From an uncultured Burkholderiales bacterium (lineage in GTDB: Bacteria; Pseudomonadota; Gammaproteobacteria; Burkholderiales; Usitatibacteraceae), in assembly GCA_964403515.1 (NCBI GenBank), contig CAYOGL010000022.1:1078-65077 (forward strand): 64,000 bases of DNA, read 5' to 3'. The translations under genes and the position numbers were made by a program. Positions 46,161-63,529 of the stretch are shown piece after piece. The notes beneath the pieces are model-generated. The model had not been told where the DNA came from, did not search any database, and saw nothing but the letters and a program-made list of their open reading frames with translations. Every line of letters starts with the position of its first letter. Within the stretch, counting starts at the first letter, position 1.

Positions 46161-46296
46161 GCGCGAACCGCGCGCCGTCCGAACGGACTAAGTAATGCGC
46201 GCGGGTCCCCCGGGAAGCGTCTCCCGGGAAGGAATTGCACGCGCGCAGCGCCGCCGGGCACCGCCTGGACGAGCCAACGTGCAAGGGAGAACAGCC

Positions 46297-48669
46297 ATGA
46301 AAGGTACGTCGCTCCTCGCCGCGGTCGCCGCGTTCGCGGTCCTCACGCTGCACGCGCAGCAAGGTCCGGGACCTTTCGATGCCCTCGCGCCGCAGCTCGG
46401 GCCCGCGCCGTGGCGCGACCCGTCCCTGCCGCCGCCACCGCCGCGGGCGCTGCCCAAGGCCACCATCGCAGTCCCGGCGATCGACACGACGAACCAGGGC
46501 GCGGTCATCGCCGCGTACAACACGTACTTCAACGTCTCCGCGCCGCCGCTCGGGTTCACCGGCTCGGTGAGCGCATGCAATCCCGGCGCGATCTCGGTCG
46601 CCTACCAGAACTGGATGATGGCGCGCCTGAACTTCCTGCGCGCGATGGCGGGCGTGGCGGGCAACGTCGCGCTCGACACGTCGCTCAACGCGCAGGAGCA
46701 GGCGGCCGCGCTGATCATGTCGGCGAACGGCACCCTCACGCATTTCCCGGCGAGCACGATGACGTGCTGGACGCAGGCCGGATACAACGGCGCGAGCTCG
46801 TCCAACCTCGCCGAGCTGAACCAGTACTTTCCCGACCCGGTTCCGCTGTACATGGCCGATTACGGAACCGGCAACCAGATCGCCGGCCATCGGCGCTGGA
46901 TCCTGAATTCGCCGCAGACGAGCTTCGCCATCGGCCAGGTCACCGGCGGCGCGGTCTTCGACGCGAACGCGCTCTACGTCTTCGGATTCACCGGGACGGG
47001 CTCGGCGCCGAACGGCATTCCGTGGCCGCCGCGCGGCTACGTGCCCATGTCGCTCATCCCGTTCGCGTTCGGCAGCGATTCGCCGCGCTGGTCGTTCGGG
47101 CTGCCCGGCGCGGACTTCACGAACGCGACCGTCACGATGACGGTGAACGGCGCGCCGCTCGCCGTCAACGTCGTCTCGCGCACGGACAACGGCTACGGCG
47201 ACAACACGCTCGTGTGGGAGCTTCCGAGCGCCTACACGGTCGTCAAGAACAGCGTCTACAACGTCACGATCAACGGCATCGCGAACGCCTCGCCCACGAG
47301 CTTCACGTACCAGGTCCTGCCGTTCGATCCCGCCGACGTCCCGCTGGTCGGCCTCACGGTGACGCTCTTCGGCGCCGGCAACGGCTCGGTCACGTCGAAC
47401 CCCTCGGGCATCAGTTGCGGCGCGACCTGCACGACGAACGTGGCCTCGGGCTCGACGGTCACGCTCACCGCGAACCCGGTATCCGGCAACGTCTTCGCGG
47501 GATGGAGCGGCGCTTGCTCCGGCACGGGTGCGTGCACGGTCAAGCCGACCGCAGCCACGAACGTGGGCGCGACGTTCGTGCCGGCCGCTTCCACGGCGAC
47601 GCTCTATGCGGTGCCGCCCTCGATCGATTTCGGCGGCCAGTCGATGGCGACGACCTCGTTTCCGGTCGCGATCACCGTCACGAACGCCGGCGGCCAATCG
47701 GCGACCGTGAGCGGCGTCACCATCACCAACGCGCAATTCGCCCAGACCAACAACTGCGCGACGCTCGCGAGCGGCGCGAGCTGCATCGTGAACGTCACCT
47801 TCACGCCTGCCGTGGGCAGCGGCGCGCTGTTGTCGACCGTCGCCACGAGCGGGACGCTTTCCATCGCGAGCAACGCGACCGGCAGCCCGAACGCGGTGAC
47901 GCTCGCCGGCACCGCGGAGAAGTCGCTCATCACGCATTACTACCAGGGCATCCTCGGTCGCGCCCCGGACAGCGGCGGCAACACGTTCTGGCAGGGCGAG
48001 ACGACGCGCATCGCCAACCTCGGCGCGAACATCAACGAGACGTGGTACGTGCTCGCGATCACGTTCTTCAACAGCGCCGAGTACCTGGCCAGGAACCGCA
48101 CCGACGCGCAGTTCGTGACCGACCTCTACAACACCTTCTTCGGACGGGCGCCCGACGCCTCGGGGCTGAGCTACTGGACCGGGCAGCTCGCGTCGGGCAT
48201 GCCGCGCGAGGTCCTGCTCGCATCCTTCATGTTCTCGACCGAGTTCACCACGTTCACCCAGGGCATCTTCGGCAACACGGGCGTGCGCGCCGAGATCAAC
48301 GCGGTGGTCGACTTCTACCGCGGCCTCCTCGCCCGCCTGCCCGACGATTCGGGATTCACTTTCTGGGTCGGGCAGTTCCGCACCGCGCAGTGCCAGGGCG
48401 CGGGCGCCGTGGACGCGCAGGCCGATTCGATCTCGAGCGGCTTCATCAACGGCGCCGAATACGCGGGACGCAACCGCACCAACGCGCAGTACGTCGGCGA
48501 CCTCTACAACGCGTTCCTGCGCCGCGGCGGCGATCTCGCCGGCGTGCAGTACTGGATCAGCCAGCTCGATTCGGGTGCGCAGACGCGCGACCAGCTGCGC
48601 CAGGCGTTCATCGCGAGCCCCGAGTTCCAGAGCCGCGTCTCCGCGATCATCGCGCAGGGCTGCATGTAG
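46297..48669 (+). CDS. Secreted protein: CAP/SCP-like domain, InlB-B-like repeat, ASH-like Ig domain, DUF4214-like C-terminus
   Basis: Signal peptide; LNFLRAMAG...LTHFP...GHRRWILN (CAP); G.GSVTSNPSGISCG...VTLTANP..G..F.GWSGAC; shared C-terminal module. Confidence 0.88.
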   Translation: MKGTSLLAAVAAFAVLTLHAQQGPGPFDALAPQLGPAPWRDPSLPPPPPRALPKATIAVPAIDTTNQGAVIAAYNTYFNVSAPPLGFTGSVSACNPGAISVAYQNWMMARLNFLRAMAGVAGNVALDTSLNAQEQAAALIMSANGTLTHFPASTMTCWTQAGYNGASSSNLAELNQYFPDPVPLYMADYGTGNQIAGHRRWILNSPQTSFAIGQVTGGAVFDANALYVFGFTGTGSAPNGIPWPPRGYVPMSLIPFAFGSDSPRWSFGLPGADFTNATVTMTVNGAPLAVNVVSRTDNGYGDNTLVWELPSAYTVVKNSVYNVTINGIANASPTSFTYQVLPFDPADVPLVGLTVTLFGAGNGSVTSNPSGISCGATCTTNVASGSTVTLTANPVSGNVFAGWSGACSGTGACTVKPTAATNVGATFVPAASTATLYAVPPSIDFGGQSMATTSFPVAITVTNAGGQSATVSGVTITNAQFAQTNNCATLASGASCIVNVTFTPAVGSGALLSTVATSGTLSIASNATGSPNAVTLAGTAEKSLITHYYQGILGRAPDSGGNTFWQGETTRIANLGANINETWYVLAITFFNSAEYLARNRTDAQFVTDLYNTFFGRAPDASGLSYWTGQLASGMPREVLLASFMFSTEFTTFTQGIFGNTGVRAEINAVVDFYRGLLARLPDDSGFTFWVGQFRTAQCQGAGAVDAQADSISSGFINGAEYAGRNRTNAQYVGDLYNAFLRRGGDLAGVQYWISQLDSGAQTRDQLRQAFIASPEFQSRVSAIIAQGCM

Positions 48670-48767: not shown

Positions 48768-51700
48768 TCAGTGCAGGCACCCCTGTGCGACCACGGCTTG
48801 CACGCGCGCCTGGAATTCCGGGCTCGCGATGAAGGCCTGGCGCAGCTGCTCACGCGTCTGCGCCCCTGAAGCGAGCTGGTTGATCCAGTACTGCACGCCG
48901 GCGAGATCGCCTCCCCGCCGCAGGAACGCGTTGTAGAGGTCGCCGACGTACTGCGCGTTCATGCGCGCGCGGGCGGCGTACTCGGCGCTGTTCAGGAACG
49001 CGCCCGAGATCGAGTCGACCTGCGCGTAGACCTGGCCCGGCCCCTGGCACTGCGCCGTACGGAACTGCTGCAGCCAGTACGTGAAGCCCGTGCTTTCCGG
49101 CAGGCGCCCGAGCAGCCCGCGATAGAAGTCCGTGACCACGTTCGCCTCGGCACGCGCCGAGCTCGCACCGAAGATGCCCTGGGTGAACGACTGGAACTCC
49201 GAGGAGAACATGAACGAGGCGAGCACGACCTCGCGCGGCATGCCGGCGCCGATCTGTCCCACCCAGTAGCTCGAGCCGCCAGCATCCGGCGGCCGGTTGA
49301 AGAACGTGTTGTACAGGTCGGCCACGAACCCGGTGTCGTCCCGCTGGAAGCCCACGTATTCCGCGCTCGTGAAGAACGCCATCGCCATCGCGTACCAGGC
49401 TTCGTTCACGTTCGCGCCGAGCGATTGCATGCGGGTCGCCTCGCCCGACCAGAAGCTCTTGCCTGGCGCATCCGGGTCGCGTCGAAGAATCGCCTGGTAG
49501 TAGTGCGTGACGAGGGATTTCTCGCCGATGCCGTTCAGCGCGATGTAGGTCGGACCGCCGCCGGCGTAGGCGACGACGAGAGAGCCGACCACCGAGCCGT
49601 CGGCGTTCGGCGTGAACGTGAGCGCCACGATGCAGCTCGCGCCCGGCGCCAGCACCGCGTTGGCGCAAGTCGAGCTCGCGATGGCGAAGCCGGCGGTCGT
49701 CGTGACGCCGGTCACCGTGACCGTGCCAGCGGAGGTGTTCGTGAGCGTGACGGACCGGGTGCCGGTCGTCGTATTCATCGACTCGGCGCCGAAATCGAGC
49801 GCCGCGAGCGCGGTCGTGAGCAACTGCACGACGATCGGGCCGTTCACCTGCACGGTCACGCCCGATGTCGTGGCGGCGTTCTGCCCATCGCCGGAGTACG
49901 CCGCGCTGATCGAATGGGCGCCGACCGAAAGCGACGACAGCGTGAGCGACGCCTGCCCCGCCGCGAGGCTCGCCGTGCCGAGCACGGTGCCGCCCTCGCT
50001 GAACGTGATCGTGCCCGTCGGCGCATTGCCCGTGACGGTAGCGGTGAAGGTCACGGCGGCCCCGAGAACCGACGGGTTGCGGTCGGCGGTGAGCGTGAGG
50101 ATCGCGCCCGTCATCACCTGGTGCGAGACCGTGTTCGAATTCGCGGCGCTGTTGCCGGCGTCGCCGGAATACGCCGCGGTGATCGAGTGCAGGCCGGGCG
50201 CGAGCGAAGCGCTGGAGAAGGTCGCGACGCCATTGGCGAGCGCGACCGCGCCGCCGAGGCTCGCGCCGCCGTCGGCGAACTGCACGGTGCCGCCCGGGTT
50301 GCTTCCCACGACGGTCGCGGTGAACGTGACGCTCGTGCCCTGCATCGAGTTGGCCGGGCCGGCGAGCGAGACGACCGGATTCACCGGGGCACTCGCGCTC
50401 GGCTGCGTGGGCGGAAGACACGTGGTGCTGCCGCCGGGGATGGTCGCCGCGCAGCGGCTGTTCGAGACGTCGAGCGATTGCGAGCCGTCGGTGCCCGTGC
50501 CCACGCAGAAGGTGGAGCCCGCCACGTTGTTCGCGAGCACGTTGTTCAGCAGGTTCACGGTCTGCGAGGCGGACGAAGTCACGTTGTTCGTGTACGCGCC
50601 GAGCTGCGACGCCGACACCTGCTGCGGCTGGCCCGACGCGTTGAGTTGCACGAGCACGCAGCCGCCGCTGTCCTTCATCCGCAGGGCGGCGCCCTTCAGC
50701 ACCGAAGCCGGCGCGTAGCCGTAGACGAAGATCGGGTGACCCGCGTCCTGCGCGCGGAACTGCACGCTCGCCTTCACGTCGACCACGGCGGTCGAGGCGT
50801 TGCCCTGCGCGGCGAGCAGGTACGGCGGGATCTTGGTGACCGGGATCGATTCGGCGCTCGCCGGGTCGAGGTCGAGGAACCAGTCGTTGGTCGCGATCGT
50901 GCCGGCGCCGCCGTCGCGCACCGTCACGCTCGAGACGATCTGGTCGGCGAACGTGCCGTTGCCCAGCGCGCCACCGCTGTTGCCGCCCCAGCAGTAGACG
51001 ACCCCGCCGGTCGTCTTCGCGCACGTGTGGAACTTGCCGCCCGCGATCGCGTTGATGCCCGGCGGCAACGCGGCGACCTGCATCGGCGTGGCGCTCGAGG
51101 AGACCGTGTCGTTGCCAAGCTGGCCGCGGGTGTTGTTGCCCCAGCAGTAGACGCTGCCGCTCGAGGTGAGCGCACATGCGTGGAACTGTCCCGCGGTGAT
51201 CGCGACGACGTTGGAAAGCCCGGTCACGCGCACCGGCGTCGAGCGGTCCGTCGTCGTGCCGTCGCCCACGCGGCCGTCGGGGTTGAAGCCCCAGCACATC
51301 ACGTTGCCCGACTGCACCGCGCACGCGAAGTACGCGCCGAGCGCGATCGAGCTCACGCCGCTCGCGAGCCCGCTCACCGCCACCGGCGTCCTGCTCGTGA
51401 TCGTCGTGCCGTTGCCGAGCTGCCCGTTGTCGTTGCGGCCCCAGCAGTGCACGCCGCCCGCGGTATCGAGCGCGCACGAGTCGTAGAACTCCGCCGCGAC
51501 CGCCTTGATGCCCGATCCGAGGCCGGCCACGGGCACCGGCGTGTAGCTCGCGACGAGCGTGCCGTCGCCCAGCTCGCCGAAGTCGTTGTCGCCCCAGCAC
51601 AGCGCCGCGCCCGCGCTCGTCACGCCGCACGTGTGATAGAAGCCCGAGGCGATCGCGGTGAACGTGTTGCCGCCCAGCACGGCCACGGGCGTGACGCTCG

Positions 51701-53186
51701 GCGAATAGTCGCCCGCACCGAGTTGTCCCTGGCCGCCCTCGCCCCAGCAATACGCGGCGCCGGTTCCGAGGATCACGCACGTATGCGCCATGCCGGTGGT
51801 GAGCTGCGTGGCGGCCGACGGCAGACCCGCGACGGCGACCGGTGTGGCCACGCTCACCGCGCGGCCGTTTCCGAGCTGCGTGTTGCGATCGTCGCCCCAG
51901 CAAAAGCCGTCACCCGCGACGGTGACCGCGCAGCTGTGATAGCCGCCCGTGCCGATCGAGGAGATGGAGCCGGCCACACCGACCGGAGTCGTGTTGTACC
52001 CGCCCGTGCTGGCATTGGAGAGCTGCCCGTGGCCGTTGTCGCCCCAGCACCACATGTCGCCGATGCTCGTGAGCACGCACGTGTGGTTCTCCCCCGCGCT
52101 GATGTCGACCGCCGACGCGATGCCGCTCACGAAGACCGGCGTGAGGCTGTTGGTCGTGGCGGCGTTTCCGAGCTGGCCCACGTCGTTGATGCCCCAGCAT
52201 TGCACCCGCCCGTCAGTCTCGACCGCGCAGGTGTGCTGGTCGCCGGTGGCGATCGCGATCGCGGCGCCCGCGAGCCCGGCGACCTTGACGGGGACCGTGC
52301 TGTCGGTCGTGGCGGCGTTGCCGAGCTGTCCGAAATCGTCGTGGCCCCAGCAATAGACGGCGCCGCCGCCCAGGATGGCGCACGTGTGATCCGAGCGCGC
52401 CGAGAGCGCGATCGCGGGGCCGGGCAACGTGACGTTCACCGCCGAGCTGCTGTCGACCGTCGTGCCGTTGCCGAGCTGTCCATGGTCATTCTGTCCCCAG
52501 CACTGCACGCCGCCCCCGGGCGCGATGATGCAGGTGTGGTGCTCGCCCGTGGCGACCGCCGTGGCGGCCGACCAGTCGGTCGTGTAGTCGCCTGCCGCCG
52601 GCTGCAGTCCCCAGCAGCTCACGAACGAACCGTAGAAGAGCACGCACGTATGCCCGCCTCCCGCGGCGAGCGCGGTCACGCCGTACGTCGCGCTGAGGGC
52701 CGGAACCGCGATGGAGCTGTTCGCGTCGTTGCCGCTGTTCAGCTCGCCCACGCCGTTCTCGCCCCAGCACATCACGCTGCTGTCGCTGGTCACCGCGCAC
52801 GTGTGGTACGTGCCCCCCGCGATCACGACCGGATTCGACAATCCGACGACCTGCGCAGGCACATCGCTCATCAGGTCGTCGCCGCTGCCGAGCACGCCCG
52901 AGCGGTTCTCGCCCCAGCAACGCGCCTGCCCCGACGTGTCGAGCGTGCAGGTGTGGATGTCGCCGGCGGCGATGGCGGGCGCGATGGCCGCGAATGCGCC
53001 CGGCGCAAGGGCGAGCAACGCCGCGGCGAGCAGCGCTCGCGCGACGTGCAGCGCGCGCGCCCCGACCGGCCGCGCGAAGGATGCGTTAGCCCTGCTTCCT
53101 GCCAAGGAAGCCTCCTCCCTGAAGGATTCCCGTCTTGTCGTGTCGGGGCACGGTGCCCCGATCGGATTTTGCGCCCGAACCGTCAA
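48768..53186 (-). CDS. Large secreted RCC1-repeat/Ig-like/ASH-like/DUF4214-like protein (exact start uncertain)
   Basis: Hydrophobic h-region ALLAAALLALAPGAFA; about 13 HTC...CWG.N..GQLG repeats; two Ig domains; shared C-terminal module. Confidence 0.88.
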   Translation of the reverse strand: MTVRAQNPIGAPCPDTTRRESFREEASLAGSRANASFARPVGARALHVARALLAAALLALAPGAFAAIAPAIAAGDIHTCTLDTSGQARCWGENRSGVLGSGDDLMSDVPAQVVGLSNPVVIAGGTYHTCAVTSDSSVMCWGENGVGELNSGNDANSSIAVPALSATYGVTALAAGGGHTCVLFYGSFVSCWGLQPAAGDYTTDWSAATAVATGEHHTCIIAPGGGVQCWGQNDHGQLGNGTTVDSSSAVNVTLPGPAIALSARSDHTCAILGGGAVYCWGHDDFGQLGNAATTDSTVPVKVAGLAGAAIAIATGDQHTCAVETDGRVQCWGINDVGQLGNAATTNSLTPVFVSGIASAVDISAGENHTCVLTSIGDMWCWGDNGHGQLSNASTGGYNTTPVGVAGSISSIGTGGYHSCAVTVAGDGFCWGDDRNTQLGNGRAVSVATPVAVAGLPSAATQLTTGMAHTCVILGTGAAYCWGEGGQGQLGAGDYSPSVTPVAVLGGNTFTAIASGFYHTCGVTSAGAALCWGDNDFGELGDGTLVASYTPVPVAGLGSGIKAVAAEFYDSCALDTAGGVHCWGRNDNGQLGNGTTITSRTPVAVSGLASGVSSIALGAYFACAVQSGNVMCWGFNPDGRVGDGTTTDRSTPVRVTGLSNVVAITAGQFHACALTSSGSVYCWGNNTRGQLGNDTVSSSATPMQVAALPPGINAIAGGKFHTCAKTTGGVVYCWGGNSGGALGNGTFADQIVSSVTVRDGGAGTIATNDWFLDLDPASAESIPVTKIPPYLLAAQGNASTAVVDVKASVQFRAQDAGHPIFVYGYAPASVLKGAALRMKDSGGCVLVQLNASGQPQQVSASQLGAYTNNVTSSASQTVNLLNNVLANNVAGSTFCVGTGTDGSQSLDVSNSRCAATIPGGSTTCLPPTQPSASAPVNPVVSLAGPANSMQGTSVTFTATVVGSNPGGTVQFADGGASLGGAVALANGVATFSSASLAPGLHSITAAYSGDAGNSAANSNTVSHQVMTGAILTLTADRNPSVLGAAVTFTATVTGNAPTGTITFSEGGTVLGTASLAAGQASLTLSSLSVGAHSISAAYSGDGQNAATTSGVTVQVNGPIVVQLLTTALAALDFGAESMNTTTGTRSVTLTNTSAGTVTVTGVTTTAGFAIASSTCANAVLAPGASCIVALTFTPNADGSVVGSLVVAYAGGGPTYIALNGIGEKSLVTHYYQAILRRDPDAPGKSFWSGEATRMQSLGANVNEAWYAMAMAFFTSAEYVGFQRDDTGFVADLYNTFFNRPPDAGGSSYWVGQIGAGMPREVVLASFMFSSEFQSFTQGIFGASSARAEANVVTDFYRGLLGRLPESTGFTYWLQQFRTAQCQGPGQVYAQVDSISGAFLNSAEYAARARMNAQYVGDLYNAFLRRGGDLAGVQYWINQLASGAQTREQLRQAFIASPEFQARVQAVVAQGCLH

Positions 53187-53210: not shown

Positions 53211-53519
53211 TTATGCGGGGGGCGTGTGCGCCTCGATCTGCACCAGGCGGTTCGCCGCGGCCACGAGAGCGGCGGTCACCTCGCGCAGCAACGCGCGGGC
53301 CTCGCCTCCGCCCCCGAAGCGCAGCTCCTCGCGCACCAGGGCCACCGCCGCCGCCTCGACACCGAGATGCGCGCGCAGCAGCAACGCCTGGCAAGGGACC
53401 GGCAGGCGCGCGAGCTGCGCGCCGGGAATGGCGTTCACGTATTCGCGCACGAGACGCGACACGGCTTTCTGGTTGCGAGCCGCGTGCAGCTGCTCGCGCA
53501 TGCGCTGGAGACGATCCAC
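53211..53519 (-). CDS. Small helical hypothetical protein (family of 4374-4688)
   Basis: REQL..A.....V..LVREYV..I....LARLP..C; ends AAANRL. Confidence 0.75.
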   Translation of the reverse strand: MDRLQRMREQLHAARNQKAVSRLVREYVNAIPGAQLARLPVPCQALLLRAHLGVEAAAVALVREELRFGGGGEARALLREVTAALVAAANRLVQIEAHTPPA

Positions 53520-53589: not shown

Positions 53590-53946
53590 TCAGGCGCTGG
53601 AGCCGGTTTCGCGCTCGATCGCGAGGCGTTGCTCGTCGATCTGCACGATGCGCAGTGCCGCCTTGGTGAGGAAGCTGCTCACGCGATGGAGCACGGGCTG
53701 CGACTTCGCGTCGCCGCTGTACGCGTGGGCCAGCTTGAGGGCGTAATAGACGACGTTCCGGGCGTTGCCGATCGCGGACGGCCGCAGGCCTTCGGGCAGC
53801 TGGGCGACCTCGTGCGCATCGAGCCGCGCGAGGAACTCGCGCGTCACCGCCGCGACTTCGCGAGCGGTGGCCACCTCGTTCAGGCGCCCCTGCCAACCCA
53901 CGAGCGACGGGCTGGCTTCCGCATGCGTTGTGATCGGGGTGTCCAT
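53590..53946 (-). CDS. Small helical hypothetical protein (family of 4374-4688)
   Basis: WQGRLNEVATAREVAAVTREFLARLDAHEVAQLP..LRP; FLTKAALRI. Confidence 0.8.
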   Translation of the reverse strand: MDTPITTHAEASPSLVGWQGRLNEVATAREVAAVTREFLARLDAHEVAQLPEGLRPSAIGNARNVVYYALKLAHAYSGDAKSQPVLHRVSSFLTKAALRIVQIDEQRLAIERETGSSA

Positions 53947-54079
53947 GACGATGATGGCGGCTTCGACTCAGGCTCCATCATGTCGAATCGCCGCGTGCCG
54001 GTATGTCGGCGCCGCGTGCGCGCAAATGTCGGCTTGCGCCTACGCCATTCGGCGCACGGCGCGAGCGCACTCCGGGATA

Positions 54080-55102
54080 ATGTCGGCCATGGCCACCCTG
54101 CCCGATGCGTCCGCCGCGCTCGAGGACGCGCTCTCGCGCATGCATCTGCTCGCGCCCGGCGAGCGGGCGCGCCTGGTGCCCCTCGAAGGCGGCGTCTCCT
54201 CCGAGATCTACCGCGTGGAGCTGCGCACCGGGCCCGTCTGCGTGAAGCGCGCGCTCCCGCGGCTCAAGGTCGCCGCCGAGTGGCATGCGCCCGTCGAACG
54301 CAACCGCTGGGAAGTGCTCTGGATGCGCACCGCCGCTGCGATCGTGCCCGAGTTCGTGCCGAAGGTGCTGGGCGACGATGCCGCCACCGGCTCCTTCGCG
54401 ATGGAGTACCTCGAGCCGCGCGACCACCCGAACTGGAAGTCGCTGCTGCGCGACGGGACCATCGATGCGCGGGTCGCAGCCGAGGTCGCGCGCCGCCTGG
54501 TGCGGGTGCACGCGGCCACCGCGGGAGATGCGCACATCGCGCTGCGCTTCGCGACGGATTCGATCTTCCACGCGATCCGGCTCGAGCCCTACCTGCTCGC
54601 CACCGCCGCGCGCCACCCCGATCGCGGCGACGCGCTGCGAGCGCTCGCTGCGACCACCGCTTCCACGCGGCTCGCGCTCGTGCACGGCGACGTGAGCCCG
54701 AAGAACGTGCTCGTGGGGCCGCGGGGCCCGATCCTGCTCGACGCCGAGTGCGCCTGGTACGGCGATCCCGCTTTCGATCTCGCGTTCTGCCTGAACCATA
54801 TGCTGCTCAAGTGCGCGTGGCGCCCGCAGTGGCGCGACCGCTACCTCGAATGCTTCGACGCGCTCGCGCACGACTATCTCGCGGGCGTCACGTGGGAGGC
54901 GGCCGCGCGCATCGAGTCGCGCACCGCGCGCCTGCTGCCGGGGCTCTTCCTCGGCCGCGTCGATGGGAAGTCGCCGGCCGAATACCTGACCGGCGAGCGC
55001 GATCGCGACCGCATCCGGCGCGTGGCGCGCGCCCTGCTCGTCGATGCGCCCGAGCGCCTGGGCGAGGTGCGCGATGCATGGCGCGCGGAGCTGATGCGAT
55101 GA
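54080..55102 (+). CDS. APH/choline kinase-like phosphotransferase
   Basis: LEGGVSSEIYRV, CVKRA, HGDVSPKNVL, LLDAECAWYGDPAFD. Confidence 0.9.
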   Translation: MSAMATLPDASAALEDALSRMHLLAPGERARLVPLEGGVSSEIYRVELRTGPVCVKRALPRLKVAAEWHAPVERNRWEVLWMRTAAAIVPEFVPKVLGDDAATGSFAMEYLEPRDHPNWKSLLRDGTIDARVAAEVARRLVRVHAATAGDAHIALRFATDSIFHAIRLEPYLLATAARHPDRGDALRALAATTASTRLALVHGDVSPKNVLVGPRGPILLDAECAWYGDPAFDLAFCLNHMLLKCAWRPQWRDRYLECFDALAHDYLAGVTWEAAARIESRTARLLPGLFLGRVDGKSPAEYLTGERDRDRIRRVARALLVDAPERLGEVRDAWRAELMR

Positions 55103-56382
55103 GCACCGCCGACATCGTCGAGGTGAAGGGACGGCGCGTGTGGGATTCGCGCGGGCGGCCCACGGTCGAGGCGCAAGTGCGGCTCGCCGGTGGCGCGGTC
55201 GGCCGGGCCATCGCGCCGGCCGGCGCCTCGCGCGGCAGCCGCGAGGCCGTCGACCTGCGCGACGGCGGCGCTCGCTTCGGCGGGCTGGACGTCGAGCACG
55301 CCTTGGGCCACGTGAACGGCGAGATCGCACGCCTCCTCGTGGGTCGTGACGCACGCCAACAGCAAGCGATCGATGCCGCGCTCGCCGCGCTCGACGGCAC
55401 CGAGCCCCTCTCGCGCCTCGGCGGCAACGCGGTGATCGCCGCTTCGATGGCGGTGCTGCACGCGGCGGCCGGCGCGCACGGCGAGCCGCTGTGGCGCCAT
55501 CTCGCGCAGGGCCGCGCCGTGCGCCTGCCGATGCCCGAGATCCAGGTCTTCGGCGGCGGCGCGCACGCGGGGCGGCGCGTCGACGTGCAGGACTTCATGG
55601 TCGTGCCGATCGGCGCGCGCACGTTCGCCGAGGCGCTCGCGATCACCGCCGAGGTCTACCGCGCCGCGGGCGAGCTCATGGCGCAAGCCGGGCGCCTGCA
55701 GGGCGTGGCCGACGAAGGCGGCTACTGGCCCGCGTTCGATCGCAACGAGGACGCGCTCGAGATGCTGGTGCGCGCGATCGAGGCGGCGGGATTCGTGCCC
55801 GGCGAGCAGGCCGCCATCTCGCTCGACATCGCCGCCTCGGAATTCGGCGCGAACGGCCGCTATCGCTTCGAGGGCCGCGACCTCGACCGCGACGCGCTCG
55901 CGGCGCTGCTGCTCGGCTGGATCGAGCGCCATCCGATCGTGAGCGTCGAGGATCCGCTCGCGGAGGACGATGCCGAGGGGCTCGCGCGCTTCACCGCGGC
56001 GTGCGGGGAGCGCGTGCAGGTCGTCGGCGACGACTTCCTGGTCACGAACGCGCGGCGCATCGGGGAAGCCGCGGGCGCGGGCGCGTGCAACACGGCGCTC
56101 ATCAAGCCGAACCAGGCGGGCACGATCAGCGCGACGCGCGCCGCGGTCGAGGCCGCACGCGCGGCACGCTGGCGCACGATCGTCTCCGCGCGCTCGGGCG
56201 AGACCGAGGACGTCACCATCGTGCACCTCGCCGTCGGCTGGGATGCGGGCCAGCTCAAGGTCGGCAGCTTCGCCCGCTCCGAGCGCATGGCCAAATGGAA
56301 CGAAGGCCTGCGCATCGAGGAAGCCCTCGGCGCCGATGCGCGCTTCGCGGACTGGAGATCGCTAGCGAGGGGAGTTAGGTAA
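55099..56382 (+). CDS. eno: Enolase homolog (divergent paralog)
   Basis: DSRGRPTVE, GAS, DEGG, LDIAASE, EDP, GDD, LIKPNQ, RSGETED; ATGA overlap with the kinase. Confidence 0.88.
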   Translation: MSTADIVEVKGRRVWDSRGRPTVEAQVRLAGGAVGRAIAPAGASRGSREAVDLRDGGARFGGLDVEHALGHVNGEIARLLVGRDARQQQAIDAALAALDGTEPLSRLGGNAVIAASMAVLHAAAGAHGEPLWRHLAQGRAVRLPMPEIQVFGGGAHAGRRVDVQDFMVVPIGARTFAEALAITAEVYRAAGELMAQAGRLQGVADEGGYWPAFDRNEDALEMLVRAIEAAGFVPGEQAAISLDIAASEFGANGRYRFEGRDLDRDALAALLLGWIERHPIVSVEDPLAEDDAEGLARFTAACGERVQVVGDDFLVTNARRIGEAAGAGACNTALIKPNQAGTISATRAAVEAARAARWRTIVSARSGETEDVTIVHLAVGWDAGQLKVGSFARSERMAKWNEGLRIEEALGADARFADWRSLARGVR

Positions 56383-56394
56383 ACGAAAAGCCAG

Positions 56395-56438
56395 GGAACC
56401 ACAGATGAACACAGATATCTGTGTTCATCTGTGGTTCC
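56395..56438. repeat. Perfect 44-bp palindrome between convergent genes
   Basis: GGAACCACAGATGAACACAGAT followed immediately by its exact reverse complement. Confidence 0.95.
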
Positions 56439-56463: not shown

Positions 56464-57141
56464 TCACTCGATGAGGCGATGCTTCATCGCGTAGTGGACG
56501 AGGTCCACGTTGGTGTGCAGGCCGAGCTTCTTGAGGATGCGCCCGCGATAGGTGCTCACGGTCGAGGGTGAGAGGCGCATCTCCTCGGCGATCTGGTGCA
56601 GGGTCTTGCCCGAGGCGAGCAGCCACATCACGCGGTACTCGCGGTCGGAGAGCCGCTCGTGCGGCGGCCGCTCCTGCTCGGGCGTGAGCCGCGAGGCCAG
56701 CTTCTCCGCGAGCGTCGGGCTCACGTAGCGCCCGCCCGTGGCGACCTTCTTCACCGCCGCGGTGAGCTCCTCGGGCGCGCTCTCCTTGGAGATGTAGCCC
56801 GCAGCGCCCGCCTTCAGCGCGCGCAGCCCGTGCGGATCCTCGGGATAGATGCTCAGGATCAGCACCGGCCGGTCCGGGTAGTCGTGCTTCACCTCGGACA
56901 GCAGCTCGACCCCGCCGCGGCCGGGCATCGAGTAGTCGAGGACCGCGACGTCCCAGTCGACCTGGTGGGCGACGTCGAACGCTTCGTCGCCGTCGCGCGC
57001 CTCCGCGACCACGTTCACCTCCGGGTCGGAGTTGAGCATCTGCTTGAGTCCCTGGCGCACGACCGGATGGTCGTCGGCGATGAGCACCTTCACGGGATGG
57101 CCCGCGGTGCCGTGCATTACGGAGGAGGATGCGAAGCTCAT
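56464..57141 (-). CDS. NarL/LuxR-family response regulator
   Basis: VLIADDHPVVR, VLDYSMP, LSDREYRV, STVSTYR.RILKKL. Confidence 0.95.
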   Translation of the reverse strand: MSFASSSVMHGTAGHPVKVLIADDHPVVRQGLKQMLNSDPEVNVVAEARDGDEAFDVAHQVDWDVAVLDYSMPGRGGVELLSEVKHDYPDRPVLILSIYPEDPHGLRALKAGAAGYISKESAPEELTAAVKKVATGGRYVSPTLAEKLASRLTPEQERPPHERLSDREYRVMWLLASGKTLHQIAEEMRLSPSTVSTYRGRILKKLGLHTNVDLVHYAMKHRLIE

Positions 57142-57143
57142 AG

Positions 57144-58277
57144 TCAGGCGTGGAACACCGTTTGTTGTTGGATCATTGGAATCGTCACGGAGACCTGCGT
57201 CCCCTTGCCCTCCTCGCCTTGCACGTCGAGCGTGCCCGCGAAGGGCAGCACGCGCTCCTTGAGCCCGAGGAAGCCCAGCGAGGTCGGGCTCTCGAACTCG
57301 GCGGGCTTGATGCCCCGCCCGTTGTCCTCCACCGTGAGGCACAGGGTCCGGTCCTCGGACTCCCGCAGCTTCACGTCCACCCGCGTCGCGTTCGCGTGGC
57401 GCGCGACGTTGGTGAGCAGCTCCTGGAAGATCCGGAAGATCGCCGTGGAGCGTTCCTTGTCCGGATCGACGAAGCGTGGCGGCAACTCGACATGGCAACG
57501 GATTCCCGTGCGCCGCTGGAACTCCCGTGCCTGCCACTCGATGGCGGCCGCGAGCCCGATCTCGTCGAGCACCTCCGGCCGCAGCCCGGACGCGATGCGC
57601 CGGACGGAATTGATGATGCGATCGATCGCCTGCGACATCGCGTGCGTCTTCTCGGCCACCGCGGCCGCGTCGTCGACGCCGTGGCCCTTGGCGAAGGAAG
57701 CGATGTCGTACTTGAGCCCGGTGAGCGCCTGGCCCAGCTCGTCGTGGATCTCGCGCGCGATGTGGATGCGCTCTTCCTCGCGCACGCTCTGCAGGTGGGC
57801 GGCGAGCGCGCGCAGGTTCTCCTCGGAAGTGCGCAGCCGCTGCTCGGTCAGCGCCCGTTCGGCCAGCTCGGCGTTCAGCATGCGGTTCATGTCGTGCAGT
57901 CCGATGAAGATCGACAGCTTCGAGCGCAGCACCTCGGGGATCACGGGCTTCACCATGTAGTCCACGGCGCCGGCCTCGTAACCGCGGAACATGGAGAGAA
58001 CGTCCTCCTGGGCCGCCGTCATGAAGATGATCGGCGTGTATTGCGAGCGCTTGCGTTCGCGGATGAGCCGGGCGGTGGTGAACCCGTCGATGCCCGGCAT
58101 CTTCACGTCCATGAGGATCGCGGCGAAGTCCTCCTCGAGCACGCAGCGCAGCGCCTCCTCGCCCGAGTGCGCCTTCACCAGGCGCGTGCCGAGGTTGGCG
58201 AGGATCCCCTCGAGGGCCATCAGGCTTGCGGGATCGTCATCCACCATGAGGATGCTCGTCTGCGGGAAACCCGCCAT
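57144..58277 (-). CDS. Cytoplasmic histidine kinase with N-terminal receiver (HisKA_3 type)
   Basis: ILMVDDD, LMDVKMP; EERIHIAREIHDELGQ.LT; QELLTNVARHA; EDNGRG. Confidence 0.93.
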   Translation of the reverse strand: MAGFPQTSILMVDDDPASLMALEGILANLGTRLVKAHSGEEALRCVLEEDFAAILMDVKMPGIDGFTTARLIRERKRSQYTPIIFMTAAQEDVLSMFRGYEAGAVDYMVKPVIPEVLRSKLSIFIGLHDMNRMLNAELAERALTEQRLRTSEENLRALAAHLQSVREEERIHIAREIHDELGQALTGLKYDIASFAKGHGVDDAAAVAEKTHAMSQAIDRIINSVRRIASGLRPEVLDEIGLAAAIEWQAREFQRRTGIRCHVELPPRFVDPDKERSTAIFRIFQELLTNVARHANATRVDVKLRESEDRTLCLTVEDNGRGIKPAEFESPTSLGFLGLKERVLPFAGTLDVQGEEGKGTQVSVTIPMIQQQTVFHA

Positions 58278-58279
58278 GG

Positions 58280-58975
58280 TCAGTCGGCGAGGACGAGGAG
58301 CGAGTAGCCGCCGAGGACGCGGGCGGCGAGGTCGGCGTTCAGCGCGTAGAGCGCCTGGCGCGGCCCCTTCAGCAGGCGCGTCTTCCACCCGAGGCCCGGC
58401 AGGTCCGTGCGCCCCGAGGTGTAGCAGTGGTCGATCACGCGATAACCGGTGTCCGCGAGCGTCGCGAGCGCGGTCTCCTTGCAGAAGTGGTGGATGTGGC
58501 CGACGGCACGGCGCTGCTCGAGCAGCGGCCGCCCGCGCGCGACCATGAGCGCGGACAGCTCGAGCGGGATGTGGAAGACCTTGTGCGCCGCCTTGGTCTT
58601 CAGCCGGCGCAGGAAGGAGAAATAGTCCTCGACGTGCTCGAACACGTCGATCGCCATCGCGACGTCGAAGCGCTCGGAGTCGTCGAACACGTTGCCGAGG
58701 CGGAACTCCAGGTTGCCCCCCGCCTTCGGCGCGCACAGCGAGTACGCCTGGGGCGAGATCTCGTAGCCGACGAAGCGGGTCGTGGGCGCGAGCTCCTCGG
58801 CGAGGTGCACGAGGATCTCGCCCGCGCCGCAGCCCACCTCGCAGACGCTCGCGGGCGCGATGCGGTTGCGCTCGAGGAGGCGCGCGATGTGGCCCGCCTT
58901 CCACGCCGAGTCGCCCGCGTGCCATCGCGGGTTGTTCCGCAGGTAAGTCCCGTCGCTGTAGATCGTCGCCATCAT
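58280..58975 (-). CDS. Class I SAM-dependent methyltransferase
   Basis: VCEVGCGAG, FVGYEIS, DVFEHVED. Confidence 0.9.
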   Translation of the reverse strand: MMATIYSDGTYLRNNPRWHAGDSAWKAGHIARLLERNRIAPASVCEVGCGAGEILVHLAEELAPTTRFVGYEISPQAYSLCAPKAGGNLEFRLGNVFDDSERFDVAMAIDVFEHVEDYFSFLRRLKTKAAHKVFHIPLELSALMVARGRPLLEQRRAVGHIHHFCKETALATLADTGYRVIDHCYTSGRTDLPGLGWKTRLLKGPRQALYALNADLAARVLGGYSLLVLAD

Positions 58976-59113
58976 CCGGTTCCTTGGGCCATTCCACACT
59001 CGAATGCTTCGCGCGGCGATGACAGTCTATGAAAGGAGGATTGCACTGATTCGGGGAGCGCTCCTAGTTCCCTAAGACTACAAAGGCGTCGGGCGCCAGC
59101 CACGCGCGCGAAG

Positions 59114-60020: not shown

Positions 60021-60749
60021 ATGGCCGAGAACGAAGAACGGAAGCTGCGCAACGAAGAGGAGAACCCCGCCGACGAATGGCGGCGTCTCGTGGCGGAGCT
60101 TTTCGGCACGTTCGCGCTCGTGCTCTTCGATGCGGGCGCGAAGGTCGCGGACACGATGAGCGGCGACATGCCGGCGGCGGCGCAGGCGCTGGTGGCCGGC
60201 CTCGTGGTCGCGTCGATGATCTATGCCATCGGCCACCGCTCCGGCGCCCACATCAATCCCGCGGTCACCTTCGGCTTCGCCCTGCGCGGCGTGTTTGCAT
60301 GGCGGCGCGTGCCCGGCTACGTCATCGCGCAGCTCATCGGGGCGCTCATCGCCGCGGCGGTGCTGCGCGCGCTCTTCGGCGACGAGGAGCATCTGGGCGC
60401 CACGCTTCCGCAGGACTCCGCGACGCTCGCGCTCGCCATGGAAGTGCTGCTCACGATCCTGCTGGTCTCGGTGATCCTCGGCACCTCGAACCGCCATCGC
60501 ATGATCGGGCCGAACGCGGCGATCGCCGTCGGCGCGACGATCATCGCGTGCAACATCTTCGGCCGCGGCGTGAGCGGCGCCTCGATGAATCCCGCGCGCT
60601 CGCTCGGCCCCGCCATCGTGAGCGCAACGTTCGACGGCTGGTGGGTCTACGTCGTGGGCCCGCTCGTGGGCGCCGCGATCGCCGTCGGGCTCGCCTTCCT
60701 CATCCATGGCGCGCAGAAGACCGACGAGGCGAAGGCCGCGAAAGGCTGA
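60021..60749 (+). CDS. Aquaporin (MIP family)
   Basis: SGAHINPAVT and SMNPARSLGPA. Confidence 0.95.
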   Translation: MAENEERKLRNEEENPADEWRRLVAELFGTFALVLFDAGAKVADTMSGDMPAAAQALVAGLVVASMIYAIGHRSGAHINPAVTFGFALRGVFAWRRVPGYVIAQLIGALIAAAVLRALFGDEEHLGATLPQDSATLALAMEVLLTILLVSVILGTSNRHRMIGPNAAIAVGATIIACNIFGRGVSGASMNPARSLGPAIVSATFDGWWVYVVGPLVGAAIAVGLAFLIHGAQKTDEAKAAKG

Positions 60750-63315: not shown

Positions 63316-63505
63316 TCTTGCGGCTCCGGGAGGGGGAAAGCGATCGAAGCCCAGAATGCGCGGCGCACTTGACCGCCTATCCTCCGCCGCGCGCACCGCG
63401 CGTAGTCCGCTTGGAGGGCGGCTGTCTTCAGTCTTCGAGTGGCTTGCCGGACGGCGGCGACACGAGGCCGGAGGGAGTCATGCGGAGAAAGAACGTCGGA
63501 ACCAA

Positions 63506-63529
63506 GGATGAACACAGATGAACACAGAT
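63506..63529. repeat. Second occurrence of the GATGAACACAGAT motif (tandem, single arm)
   Basis: GGATGAACACAGATGAACACAGAT; shares ACAGATGAACACAGAT with the 56.4 kb palindrome. Confidence 0.8.

Follow-up and report, generated by a model that had tools for sequence, protein, structure and literature searches.

A conserved pair of an APH-fold kinase and an active-site variant of enolase: a proposed two-step module for a glycerate-like 2-hydroxy acid

Background

In the glyoxylate, tartrate, glucarate, serine-cycle and non-phosphorylative Entner-Doudoroff pathways a glycerate 2-kinase and an enolase act in succession, and the glycerate kinases of classes I–III have been reviewed (PMC2063504). Here we describe two adjacent genes, one for a small-molecule kinase of the APH fold and one for a variant enolase, for which we propose the same order of events, from kinase through enolase to phosphoenolpyruvate (PEP). 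They lie in a stretch of 64,000 nucleotides (the window) from an uncultured Burkholderiales bacterium of the family Usitatibacteraceae (assembly GCA_964403515.1, contig CAYOGL010000022.1, positions 1,078 to 65,077 of the forward strand). The pair has further in common with the glycerate pathways the company of hydroxypyruvate-reductase-like dehydrogenases, aldolases, an aldehyde dehydrogenase and the mannonate dehydratase UxuA; it differs from them in a kinase that shows no match to glycerate kinase classes I and II, in the frequent co-occurrence of a classical glycerate 2-kinase of the MOFRL type, and in the possession of a private, altered enolase.

Each of the two proteins has better known relatives. 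The kinase finds its closest solved fold, and its sole solved sequence match, in methylthioribose kinase (MtnK; TIGR01767, PDB 2pyw and 2pul), with which it shares the HGDxxxxN catalytic loop and the DxE Mg motif, but it is approximately 60 residues shorter, shows 16% identity, has no methionine-salvage genes nearby and contains basic residues that fit an anionic substrate. A coupling of an APH-fold kinase to an eliminating enzyme is known from the class V lanthipeptide dehydratase LxmK/LxmY (PDB 9dk2), in which LxmK is a sequence and fold neighbor of our kinase; here, in contrast, the partner belongs to the enolase family, and a small acid, rather than a peptide, is almost certainly what the enzymes act on. 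The variant enolase resembles canonical enolases (PDB 4yws, 1e9i from Escherichia coli, 1ebg from yeast) in its two-domain fold, in full-length alignment to solved enolases with E-values of ~1e-109, and in the presence of the Mg ligands and of equivalents of the Lys345/Lys396 pair, Glu211, His159, Arg374 and Ser39 (yeast numbering); it differs from them in having Asp for Glu168 and Ala for His373, in being 45–50% identical to the canonical copies of its own order, and in being a second copy that stands beside, or is fused to, a kinase. We found no paper on the kinase-enolase pair in the full-text literature, and NCBIfam includes no dedicated model for either protein. To our knowledge, the enolase family proper, as opposed to the wider superfamily, is treated as having a single function, and phosphopyruvate hydratase is the name that annotation pipelines give to all of its members.

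Results and discussion

Conservation of the kinase-enolase pairing

A first-pass annotation of the window, made from the sequence alone, described the locus as an APH-type kinase translationally coupled to an enolase. Both assignments hold: the kinase matches the Pfam family APH (PF01636, 6e-17) and its partner matches Enolase_N (PF03952, 2.9e-42) and Enolase_C (PF00113, 5.8e-83). The ATGA overlap is confirmed by direct reading of the junction, ...CTG ATG CGA TGA, in which the enolase ATG occupies 55099-55101 and the kinase TGA 55100-55102 (Table 1).

Table 1. Features of the locus and of related fusion loci. Positions are those of the window unless a locus handle (L) precedes them.
Feature	Position	Strand	Remarks
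MtnK-like APH-fold small-molecule kinase	54080..55102	+	340 aa, translated; Pfam APH
Variant enolase	55099..56382	+	427 aa; Enolase_N + Enolase_C
ATGA stop/start overlap, kinase/enolase	55099..55102	+	Read directly from sequence; translational coupling
Asp165 codon GAC (yeast Glu168 position)	55591..55593	+	VQDFM where canonical LQEFM
Ala364 codon GCG (yeast His373 position)	56188..56190	+	SARSGET where canonical SHRSGET
Divergent intergenic region 5' of kinase, presumed promoter	53947..54079	.	133 bp; flanking genes on opposite strands
Perfect palindrome, 20-bp stem	56395..56438	.	Terminator scan and sequence; between enolase stop and convergent response-regulator gene
UxuA::kinase fusions	L111:5441-7588, L113:9001-11175, L114:3700-5856		UxuA mannonate dehydratase domain, 455 bits vs cut-off 191
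Ketopantoate-reductase-like::kinase fusion	L112:4324-6408
~320-aa N-terminal domain::kinase fusion	L117:7001-8983		Faint GRDB-like match

The association of the two genes extends far beyond this locus. Among 151 Burkholderiales genomes (the same GTDB order) the kinase is present in 25, and in all of these the variant enolase is adjacent to it, with the order kinase-enolase in 22 genomes and enolase-kinase in three, the latter with a more divergent enolase (~47% identical to that of the window). By identity to the window variant the enolases of this sample fall into two groups, canonical (at most 50%) and variant (58–72%), and one further genome has a variant enolase that is cut off by a contig end. 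One sampled genome (G026) is marked as unpublished; it does not carry the pair, and none of the conclusions rests on it. The distribution is patchy, since the pair was not found in one genome of the same genus and two others of the same family that were sampled. A scan of one genome per GTDB species revealed at least 569 loci encoding the kinase, with named hosts among Burkholderiales, Rhodospirillales, Acetobacteraceae (Roseomonas, Neoroseomonas), Azospirillum, Bosea, Variovorax, Vicinamibacterales, Bryobacterales and Methylomirabilales. Cultured carriers include Neoroseomonas marina JC162, Neoroseomonas terrae LMG 31159, Bosea sp. BH3 and Roseomonas sp. CAU 1739. We analyzed 106 loci, a few of which represent the same genome twice, with our own caller of open reading frames (ORFs) and tblastn. 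The variant enolase lies beside the kinase, or at most three genes away, in 101 of them, and the other five end at the kinase, so that the pairing is found at 101 of 101 informative loci, spanning Burkholderiales, Alphaproteobacteria, Acidobacteriota and Methylomirabilales. At most of the related loci the two genes overlap or are separated by no more than approximately 45 nt.

The kinase, of which more than 8000 homologues exist, also has thousands of metagenomic relatives. A search for longer proteins that contain it identified about 80 clusters of single-chain fusions (~770 aa) composed of APH, Enolase_N and Enolase_C. In the fused proteins that include the enolase motif the SAR form is universal (82/82), and the kinase is nearly always N-terminal (80/82); some of them are labelled "enolase" or "phosphopyruvate hydratase" by their sources. 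Kinases at 46–52% identity are fused to other partners as well (Table 1), and at four of the five such loci examined an enolase with the QD and SAR signatures follows directly.

The altered active site of the enolase

The variant is a full-length member of the enolase family by its score against TIGR01060 (465 bits, cut-off 300). A pipeline would therefore name it phosphopyruvate hydratase, which, like the labels of the fused relatives, agrees with the suspicion of the first-pass annotation that such proteins are misannotated as eno. Alignment to the canonical enolase of the same genome, complemented by reading of the codons, substantiates the three departures from the canonical motifs noted earlier (QDF, SARSGET and EIQVFGGG in an otherwise preserved catalytic core): in addition to the two substitutions located in Table 1, the loop preceding His156 reads EIQVFGGG versus MMNVVNGG in the canonical copy (PEIQVFGGGAHA for PMMNVVNGGAHA in the motif alignment). 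The residues kept are, with the yeast number in brackets, S44 (S39), H156 (H159), Q164 (Q167), E206 (E211), D243 (D246), E284 (E295), D311/D312 (D320), K336 (K345), R365 (R374) and K387 (K396). The protein thus retains the metal ligands and acid/base residues of phosphopyruvate hydratase (EC 4.2.1.11) but has Asp165 and Ala364 in place of Glu168 and His373. Both substitutions occur in all 27 aligned kinase-linked enolases, and this, together with the uniformity of the fused proteins, indicates that they did not arise by chance. From yeast structures and studies of the K345A, E168Q and E211Q mutants we take it that Glu168 and His373 flank the C3 hydroxyl and the water in canonical enolase. The position of the clade-defining changes beside that group suggests that the C3 group of the substrate differs from that of 2-phosphoglycerate, or is handled differently, while the type of reaction is probably that of canonical enolase, i.e. 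abstraction of the C2 proton followed by beta-elimination.

A survey of QDF/SARS enolases, which the first-pass annotation had proposed, showed that they form a large lineage separate from the canonical clade. With the variant enolase as a query, an exhaustive search of representatives at 50% identity retrieved 22,094 enolase-family proteins, of which the best 140 full-length sequences were aligned and their residues scanned. The canonical E/H/E pattern is present in 77, with Glu168 and His373 in 77/77; another 36 have Asp at 168, Ala or Gly at 373 and Glu at 211, and about 20 others carry further changes, including loss of Glu211. Only two positions are conserved within the groups yet different between them, namely E168D (36/36) and H373A (94%, the rest Gly). 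In a FastTree phylogeny, which is unrooted and bears local support values only, all canonical sequences form one clade (SH-like support 99) and the D/A forms lie across that branch; judged from these sequences, the variant clade appears old and diverse, as deep as the canonical enolases. Several lineages on the variant side retain the metal ligands and both lysines but have K, Q, D or T in place of Glu211 (representatives P0242, P0245, P0247, P0309, P0311, P0337, P0360 and P0382); these may have acquired further new activities, such as epimerization by two bases or an elimination in which the leaving group is a good one. An extra Arg after His159 was considered as a mark of a second anionic group and dropped, as it is present in 27/27 close relatives but in just 17/36 representatives.

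The change of two catalytic-site residues could also be taken as a sign that the enolase is a non-catalytic or decaying copy whose link to the kinase is accidental or serves a regulatory or moonlighting function. We give this explanation hardly any credence: the metal ligands and both catalytic lysines are all preserved, an identity of 58–77% is maintained across families of the order, the clade is deep and has its own invariant residues, and both pairing and fusion are conserved across phyla.

The kinase

The kinase may alternatively begin at an in-frame ATG at 54089, which would give 337 aa, the same length as the database copy. Its best NCBIfam match is the MtnK equivalog TIGR01767, but this is partial and scores 57.7 bits against a cut-off of 275, and no mtn genes are found among the neighbors; membership of the APH family, on the other hand, is supported by the PF01636 match, by the ATP lysine K56, the catalytic loop and the Mg motif, and by the MtnK-like modelled fold. 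The residues invariant in our kinase alignment (A1) include K56, the HGDxxPKN loop (H202-G-D204...N209), the Mg motif D221-A-E223, a further block RxDGKSPxEY (R293-x-D-G-K297-S-P-x-E-Y) and numerous Arg and Lys residues, which suggest from the sequence that the substrate is a small anionic metabolite. The solved fold nearest to the AlphaFold model (pLDDT 91.5) is that of Arabidopsis thaliana methylthioribose kinase (2pyw, TM-score 0.79), followed by PsiK, corramycin phosphotransferase and the lanthipeptide kinase LxmK. The protein is therefore a small-molecule enzyme of the MtnK branch, distinct from MtnK itself. Only APH-type models match it; neither glycerate kinase class I (Gly_kinase, PF02595) nor class II (MOFRL, PF05161) does, class III not having been searched, and in the ESM Atlas the kinase falls into clusters named generically "phosphotransferase family". 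The predicted complex of kinase and enolase (alignments A1 and A2) scored 0.00, which weighs neither for nor against binding.

The presence of corramycin phosphotransferase among the structural neighbors, and the fact that APH-fold kinases are classic antibiotic modifiers, bring to mind a resistance module, in which a natural inhibitor of enolase, of the phosphonate or hydroxamate type, would be inactivated by the kinase, and the variant enolase would be a copy of its target that the drug does not affect. The patchy distribution of the pair agrees with this idea, and both changed residues presumably contact transition-state analogue inhibitors in solved enolase complexes. We nevertheless regard it as very improbable in view of the single-chain fusions, the steady association, described below, with UxuA, 2-keto-acid reductases and operons of sugar catabolism, the invariant Arg and Lys residues that fit a small anionic metabolite, and the lack of a biosynthetic cluster nearby.

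Housekeeping enzymes in the carriers

The genome from which the window derives (100% complete, 150 contigs) contains a canonical enolase elsewhere, on contig C18; the first-pass annotation had proposed to look for one. This copy scores 673 bits against TIGR01060 and is 49% identical to the variant, which is thus not the sole or main glycolytic/gluconeogenic enolase of the organism. No Pfam match was obtained for the four frames examined around the canonical eno, and kdsA is located ~30 kb away. A further enolase, counted as canonical, is present in every carrier tested, namely 26 genomes of the order and five distant ones, the latter with one canonical (609–687 bits) and one variant (459–482 bits) enolase each. 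The module is expected not to be simply a duplicate of glycolysis.

The same genome encodes a MOFRL-type glycerate 2-kinase at a separate locus on contig C6, whereas Gly_kinase (PF02595) was not found in it. In the order sample the MOFRL kinase accompanies the pair in 22 of 25 carriers (88%) and is present in 61 of 126 non-carriers (48%); related genomes are not independent, and the comparison describes a tendency rather than a statistical test. The notion that the APH-fold kinase replaces the classical glycerate kinase was rejected on account of the MOFRL enzyme in the source genome and in those 22 carriers.

Gene neighbors of the pair

Clustering of the neighbors across the 106 loci identified as the commonest partner a D-isomer-specific 2-hydroxyacid dehydrogenase of ~314 aa (23 loci, in 12 of them directly downstream on the same strand). 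Its NCBIfam scores as glyoxylate reductase and as phosphoglycerate dehydrogenase are equal and assign it to no equivalog, and its solved relatives are similarly ambiguous, with a resemblance to phosphoglycerate dehydrogenase no greater than that to glycerate dehydrogenase/glyoxylate reductase. The partners next in frequency are an EamA transporter (16 loci), a 4HBT thioesterase (15) and a divergently oriented glycerol kinase (12), all mainly in one syntenic set of Burkholderiales and unclassified Pseudomonadota metagenome-assembled genomes. A PdxH-like oxidase is found upstream in five loci and a glyoxalase-fold gene between the two members of the pair in two; the remaining operonic neighbors are heterogeneous. 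Most loci contain the pair alone, with no enzyme that could process an unusual product, which argues that the product probably enters central metabolism directly and favors PEP.

Two loci have a more elaborate context. L111 consists of a sugar ABC transporter, a short-chain dehydrogenase/reductase (SDR), aldose 1-epimerase, the UxuA::kinase fusion, the variant enolase and another SDR, in this order; L115 consists of an FAD oxidase, two DhnA-type class I aldolases, two FGGY ketose kinases, the kinase, the variant enolase, an aldehyde dehydrogenase and a mannose-isomerase-like enzyme. Both arrangements put the pair at the close of routes yielding a C3 aldehyde or acid.

A proposed two-step reaction

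The reading we prefer, though tentatively and with somewhat less than even confidence, is that of a two-enzyme module acting on a glycerate-like D-2-hydroxy acid whose C3 group differs from that of glycerate or is handled differently. The MtnK-like kinase would use ATP to phosphorylate a small anionic acid of this kind, most likely on the 2-hydroxyl. The resulting 2-phospho acid would be bound by the variant enolase through the unchanged site formed by two Mg2+ ions, Arg and His; Lys336 (yeast Lys345) would take off the C2 proton, and the C3 substituent would be expelled to yield PEP or a close enol-phosphate analogue. The pairing, the fusions, the pattern of residues and the accompanying housekeeping enzymes are observed; we infer the order of the reactions, the phosphorylated position, the product and, most of all, which acid serves as the substrate, D-glycerate being the simplest candidate. 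That two consecutive steps on one metabolite are involved is suggested by the coupling or fusion of the genes, by the intact machinery for proton abstraction and phosphate binding, and by the keto-acid-reducing and aldehyde-oxidizing partners. Further support comes from partners that make or precede a small 2-hydroxy acid, namely the dehydrogenase, the ketopantoate-reductase::kinase fusion, the SDRs, and the aldolases with aldehyde dehydrogenase. Of the earlier proposal of a kinase plus dehydratase/phospho-lyase module for a non-glycolytic substrate, the module is supported, while the non-glycolytic substrate is not shown and the gene contexts point to a glycerate-like C3 acid; the 2-phospho-aldonate that had been given as an example has indirect support only, from the UxuA fusions and the sugar operons.

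Several observations weigh against this reading. The gene contexts fit plain D-glycerate best (the glycerate-dehydrogenase-like reductase, the aldolase with aldehyde dehydrogenase, and UxuA), and as only two residues differ universally, the substrate could be 2-phosphoglycerate with co-adapted residues. In L113 the UxuA::kinase fusion resides in a sugar operon without a variant enolase nearby, which suggests that the kinase product can enter ordinary metabolism. Biochemical data on any member of this kinase-enolase group were not found in the full-text literature.

These points lead to a plain glycerate route as an alternative, in which the kinase would represent a fourth, APH-fold class of D-glycerate 2-kinase, the enolase a second phosphopyruvate hydratase with neutral or co-adapted substitutions, and glycerate would be converted to PEP by way of 2-phosphoglycerate. 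The best solved relative of the commonest partner is glycerate dehydrogenase/glyoxylate reductase; the sugar isomerase, ketose kinases, class I aldolases and aldehyde dehydrogenase that accompany the pair in L115 follow a glyceraldehyde-to-glycerate logic; the UxuA::kinase fusions, one of them without the variant enolase, match the end of a pathway of the non-phosphorylative Entner-Doudoroff type; and the carriers are enriched for glycerate metabolism, as judged from the MOFRL frequencies. Such a route would, however, duplicate the classical glycerate 2-kinase and canonical enolase in 22/25 carriers, and it leaves the obligate coupling or fusion to a private enolase unexplained. It is also at odds with the invariance of Glu168 and His373 in 77/77 canonical sequences and with the Asp in 36/36 variants, where no reversion is seen; Poyner et al. 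are said to have reported in 1996 that E168Q lowers the activity of yeast enolase by several orders of magnitude. Because the fixation of Asp168 and Ala/Gly373 extends over a very deep clade, and because the MOFRL enzyme would make the kinase redundant, we place the plain glycerate route below the glycerate-like module with an altered C3 group and consider it rather unlikely, if still deserving serious attention.

A special case of the favored module concerns the group that leaves from C3. The variant enolases might be beta-eliminating lyases that expel something other than hydroxide, e.g. sulfite or phosphate, as in the conversion of 2-phospho-3-sulfolactate to PEP and sulfite (the reverse of the ComA reaction) or of 2,3-bisphosphoglycerate with release of phosphate, and together with the kinase they would then provide an ATP-neutral route from a 3-substituted lactate to PEP. 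At both defining positions the side chain next to the group that leaves from C3 has become shorter or is gone, and several variant sub-lineages have lost Glu211, a general acid required only if the leaving group is poor. The YihS-like isomerase, DeoC/LacD-type aldolases and aldehyde dehydrogenase of L115 resemble a sulfoglycolysis that ends in sulfolactate, and kinase-plus-lyase logic is realized in the same kinase fold by the lexapeptide dehydratase complex LxmK/LxmY among the structural neighbors. Against this, a search among 68 operonic neighbor families found no sulfonate or sulfite genes in the 25 most frequent of 98 families, and no recurring sulfite exporter, sulfite dehydrogenase or known sulfonate gene was seen among the operonic neighbors; the extra Arg near His159, limited to 17/36 variant representatives, leaves an added anionic group unsupported; the L115 isomerase scores below the mannose-isomerase equivalog cut-off and bears no sulfo-specific mark; and a bypass from 3-phosphoglycerate through 2,3-bisphosphoglycerate to PEP has no clear physiological use. 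A non-water leaving group therefore seems improbable to us. If true, it would be the first second function inside the enolase family proper, and its most interesting form, 3-sulfolactate to 2-phospho-3-sulfolactate to PEP and sulfite, would constitute a new desulfonation branch of the sulfoquinovose/organosulfonate cycle.

Layout of the locus and its surroundings

The genes on either side of the pair are on the opposite strand, and a palindrome follows the enolase; the pair is therefore a two-gene operon, without a transporter, regulator or pathway neighbor of its own. The promoter is presumed from the divergent arrangement upstream, as no match to the sigma-70 consensus was found in the 133-bp region. 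Downstream, the 44-nt perfect palindrome GGAACCACAGATGAACACAGAT|ATCTGTGTTCATCTGTGGTTCC at 56395-56438, AT-rich for this genome, is likely to be a two-way terminator that ends the operon. Two overlapping near-copies of its 18-nt arm, of which none is expected by chance, were found 7 kb away at 63502-63529, and the repeat may be an element of the repetitive extragenic palindrome (REP) type or a shared terminator.

Two minus-strand ORFs at 53211-53519 and 53590-53946 lack both a Pfam match and conservation next to the pair at other loci, and were accordingly rejected as parts of the module. Beyond them, 48768-53186 (minus strand) encodes a protein of ~1445–1470 aa with many RCC1 repeats, two Big_3_5 Ig domains and two C-terminal DUF4214 domains; it is adjoined by an 824-aa protein (46195-48669, plus strand) with InlB-B-repeat-like and HYDIN-type Ig domains and DUF4214, and the two appear to be large repeat proteins, exposed on the surface or secreted, that form an unusual pair. 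On the other side, a response regulator of the LuxR type, a histidine kinase that carries a receiver domain of its own and a class I methyltransferase are encoded in a tight operon convergent on the enolase (56464-58999, minus strand); we saw no sign that their products regulate the pair. A channel of the MIP family (aquaporin or glycerol-facilitator type) is encoded at 60021-60749 on the plus strand, 3.6 kb downstream of the pair, and elsewhere in Burkholderiales a glycerol kinase gene is oriented divergently to the pair; a link of the pair to glycerol is possible.

Conclusions

The fixed pair of active-site changes and the kinase partner point to a two-step reaction, new to the literature, by which bacteria of soil and water would process a compound in or near their central carbon metabolism. 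As both enzymes are soluble and several carriers are in culture, the question is experimentally tractable. Identification of the substrate would correct thousands of annotations, and the outcome would add either a fourth class of glycerate kinase or a new PEP-forming lyase reaction. It would also lead to better models of the metabolism of Burkholderiales, Acetobacteraceae, Acidobacteriota and other carriers.

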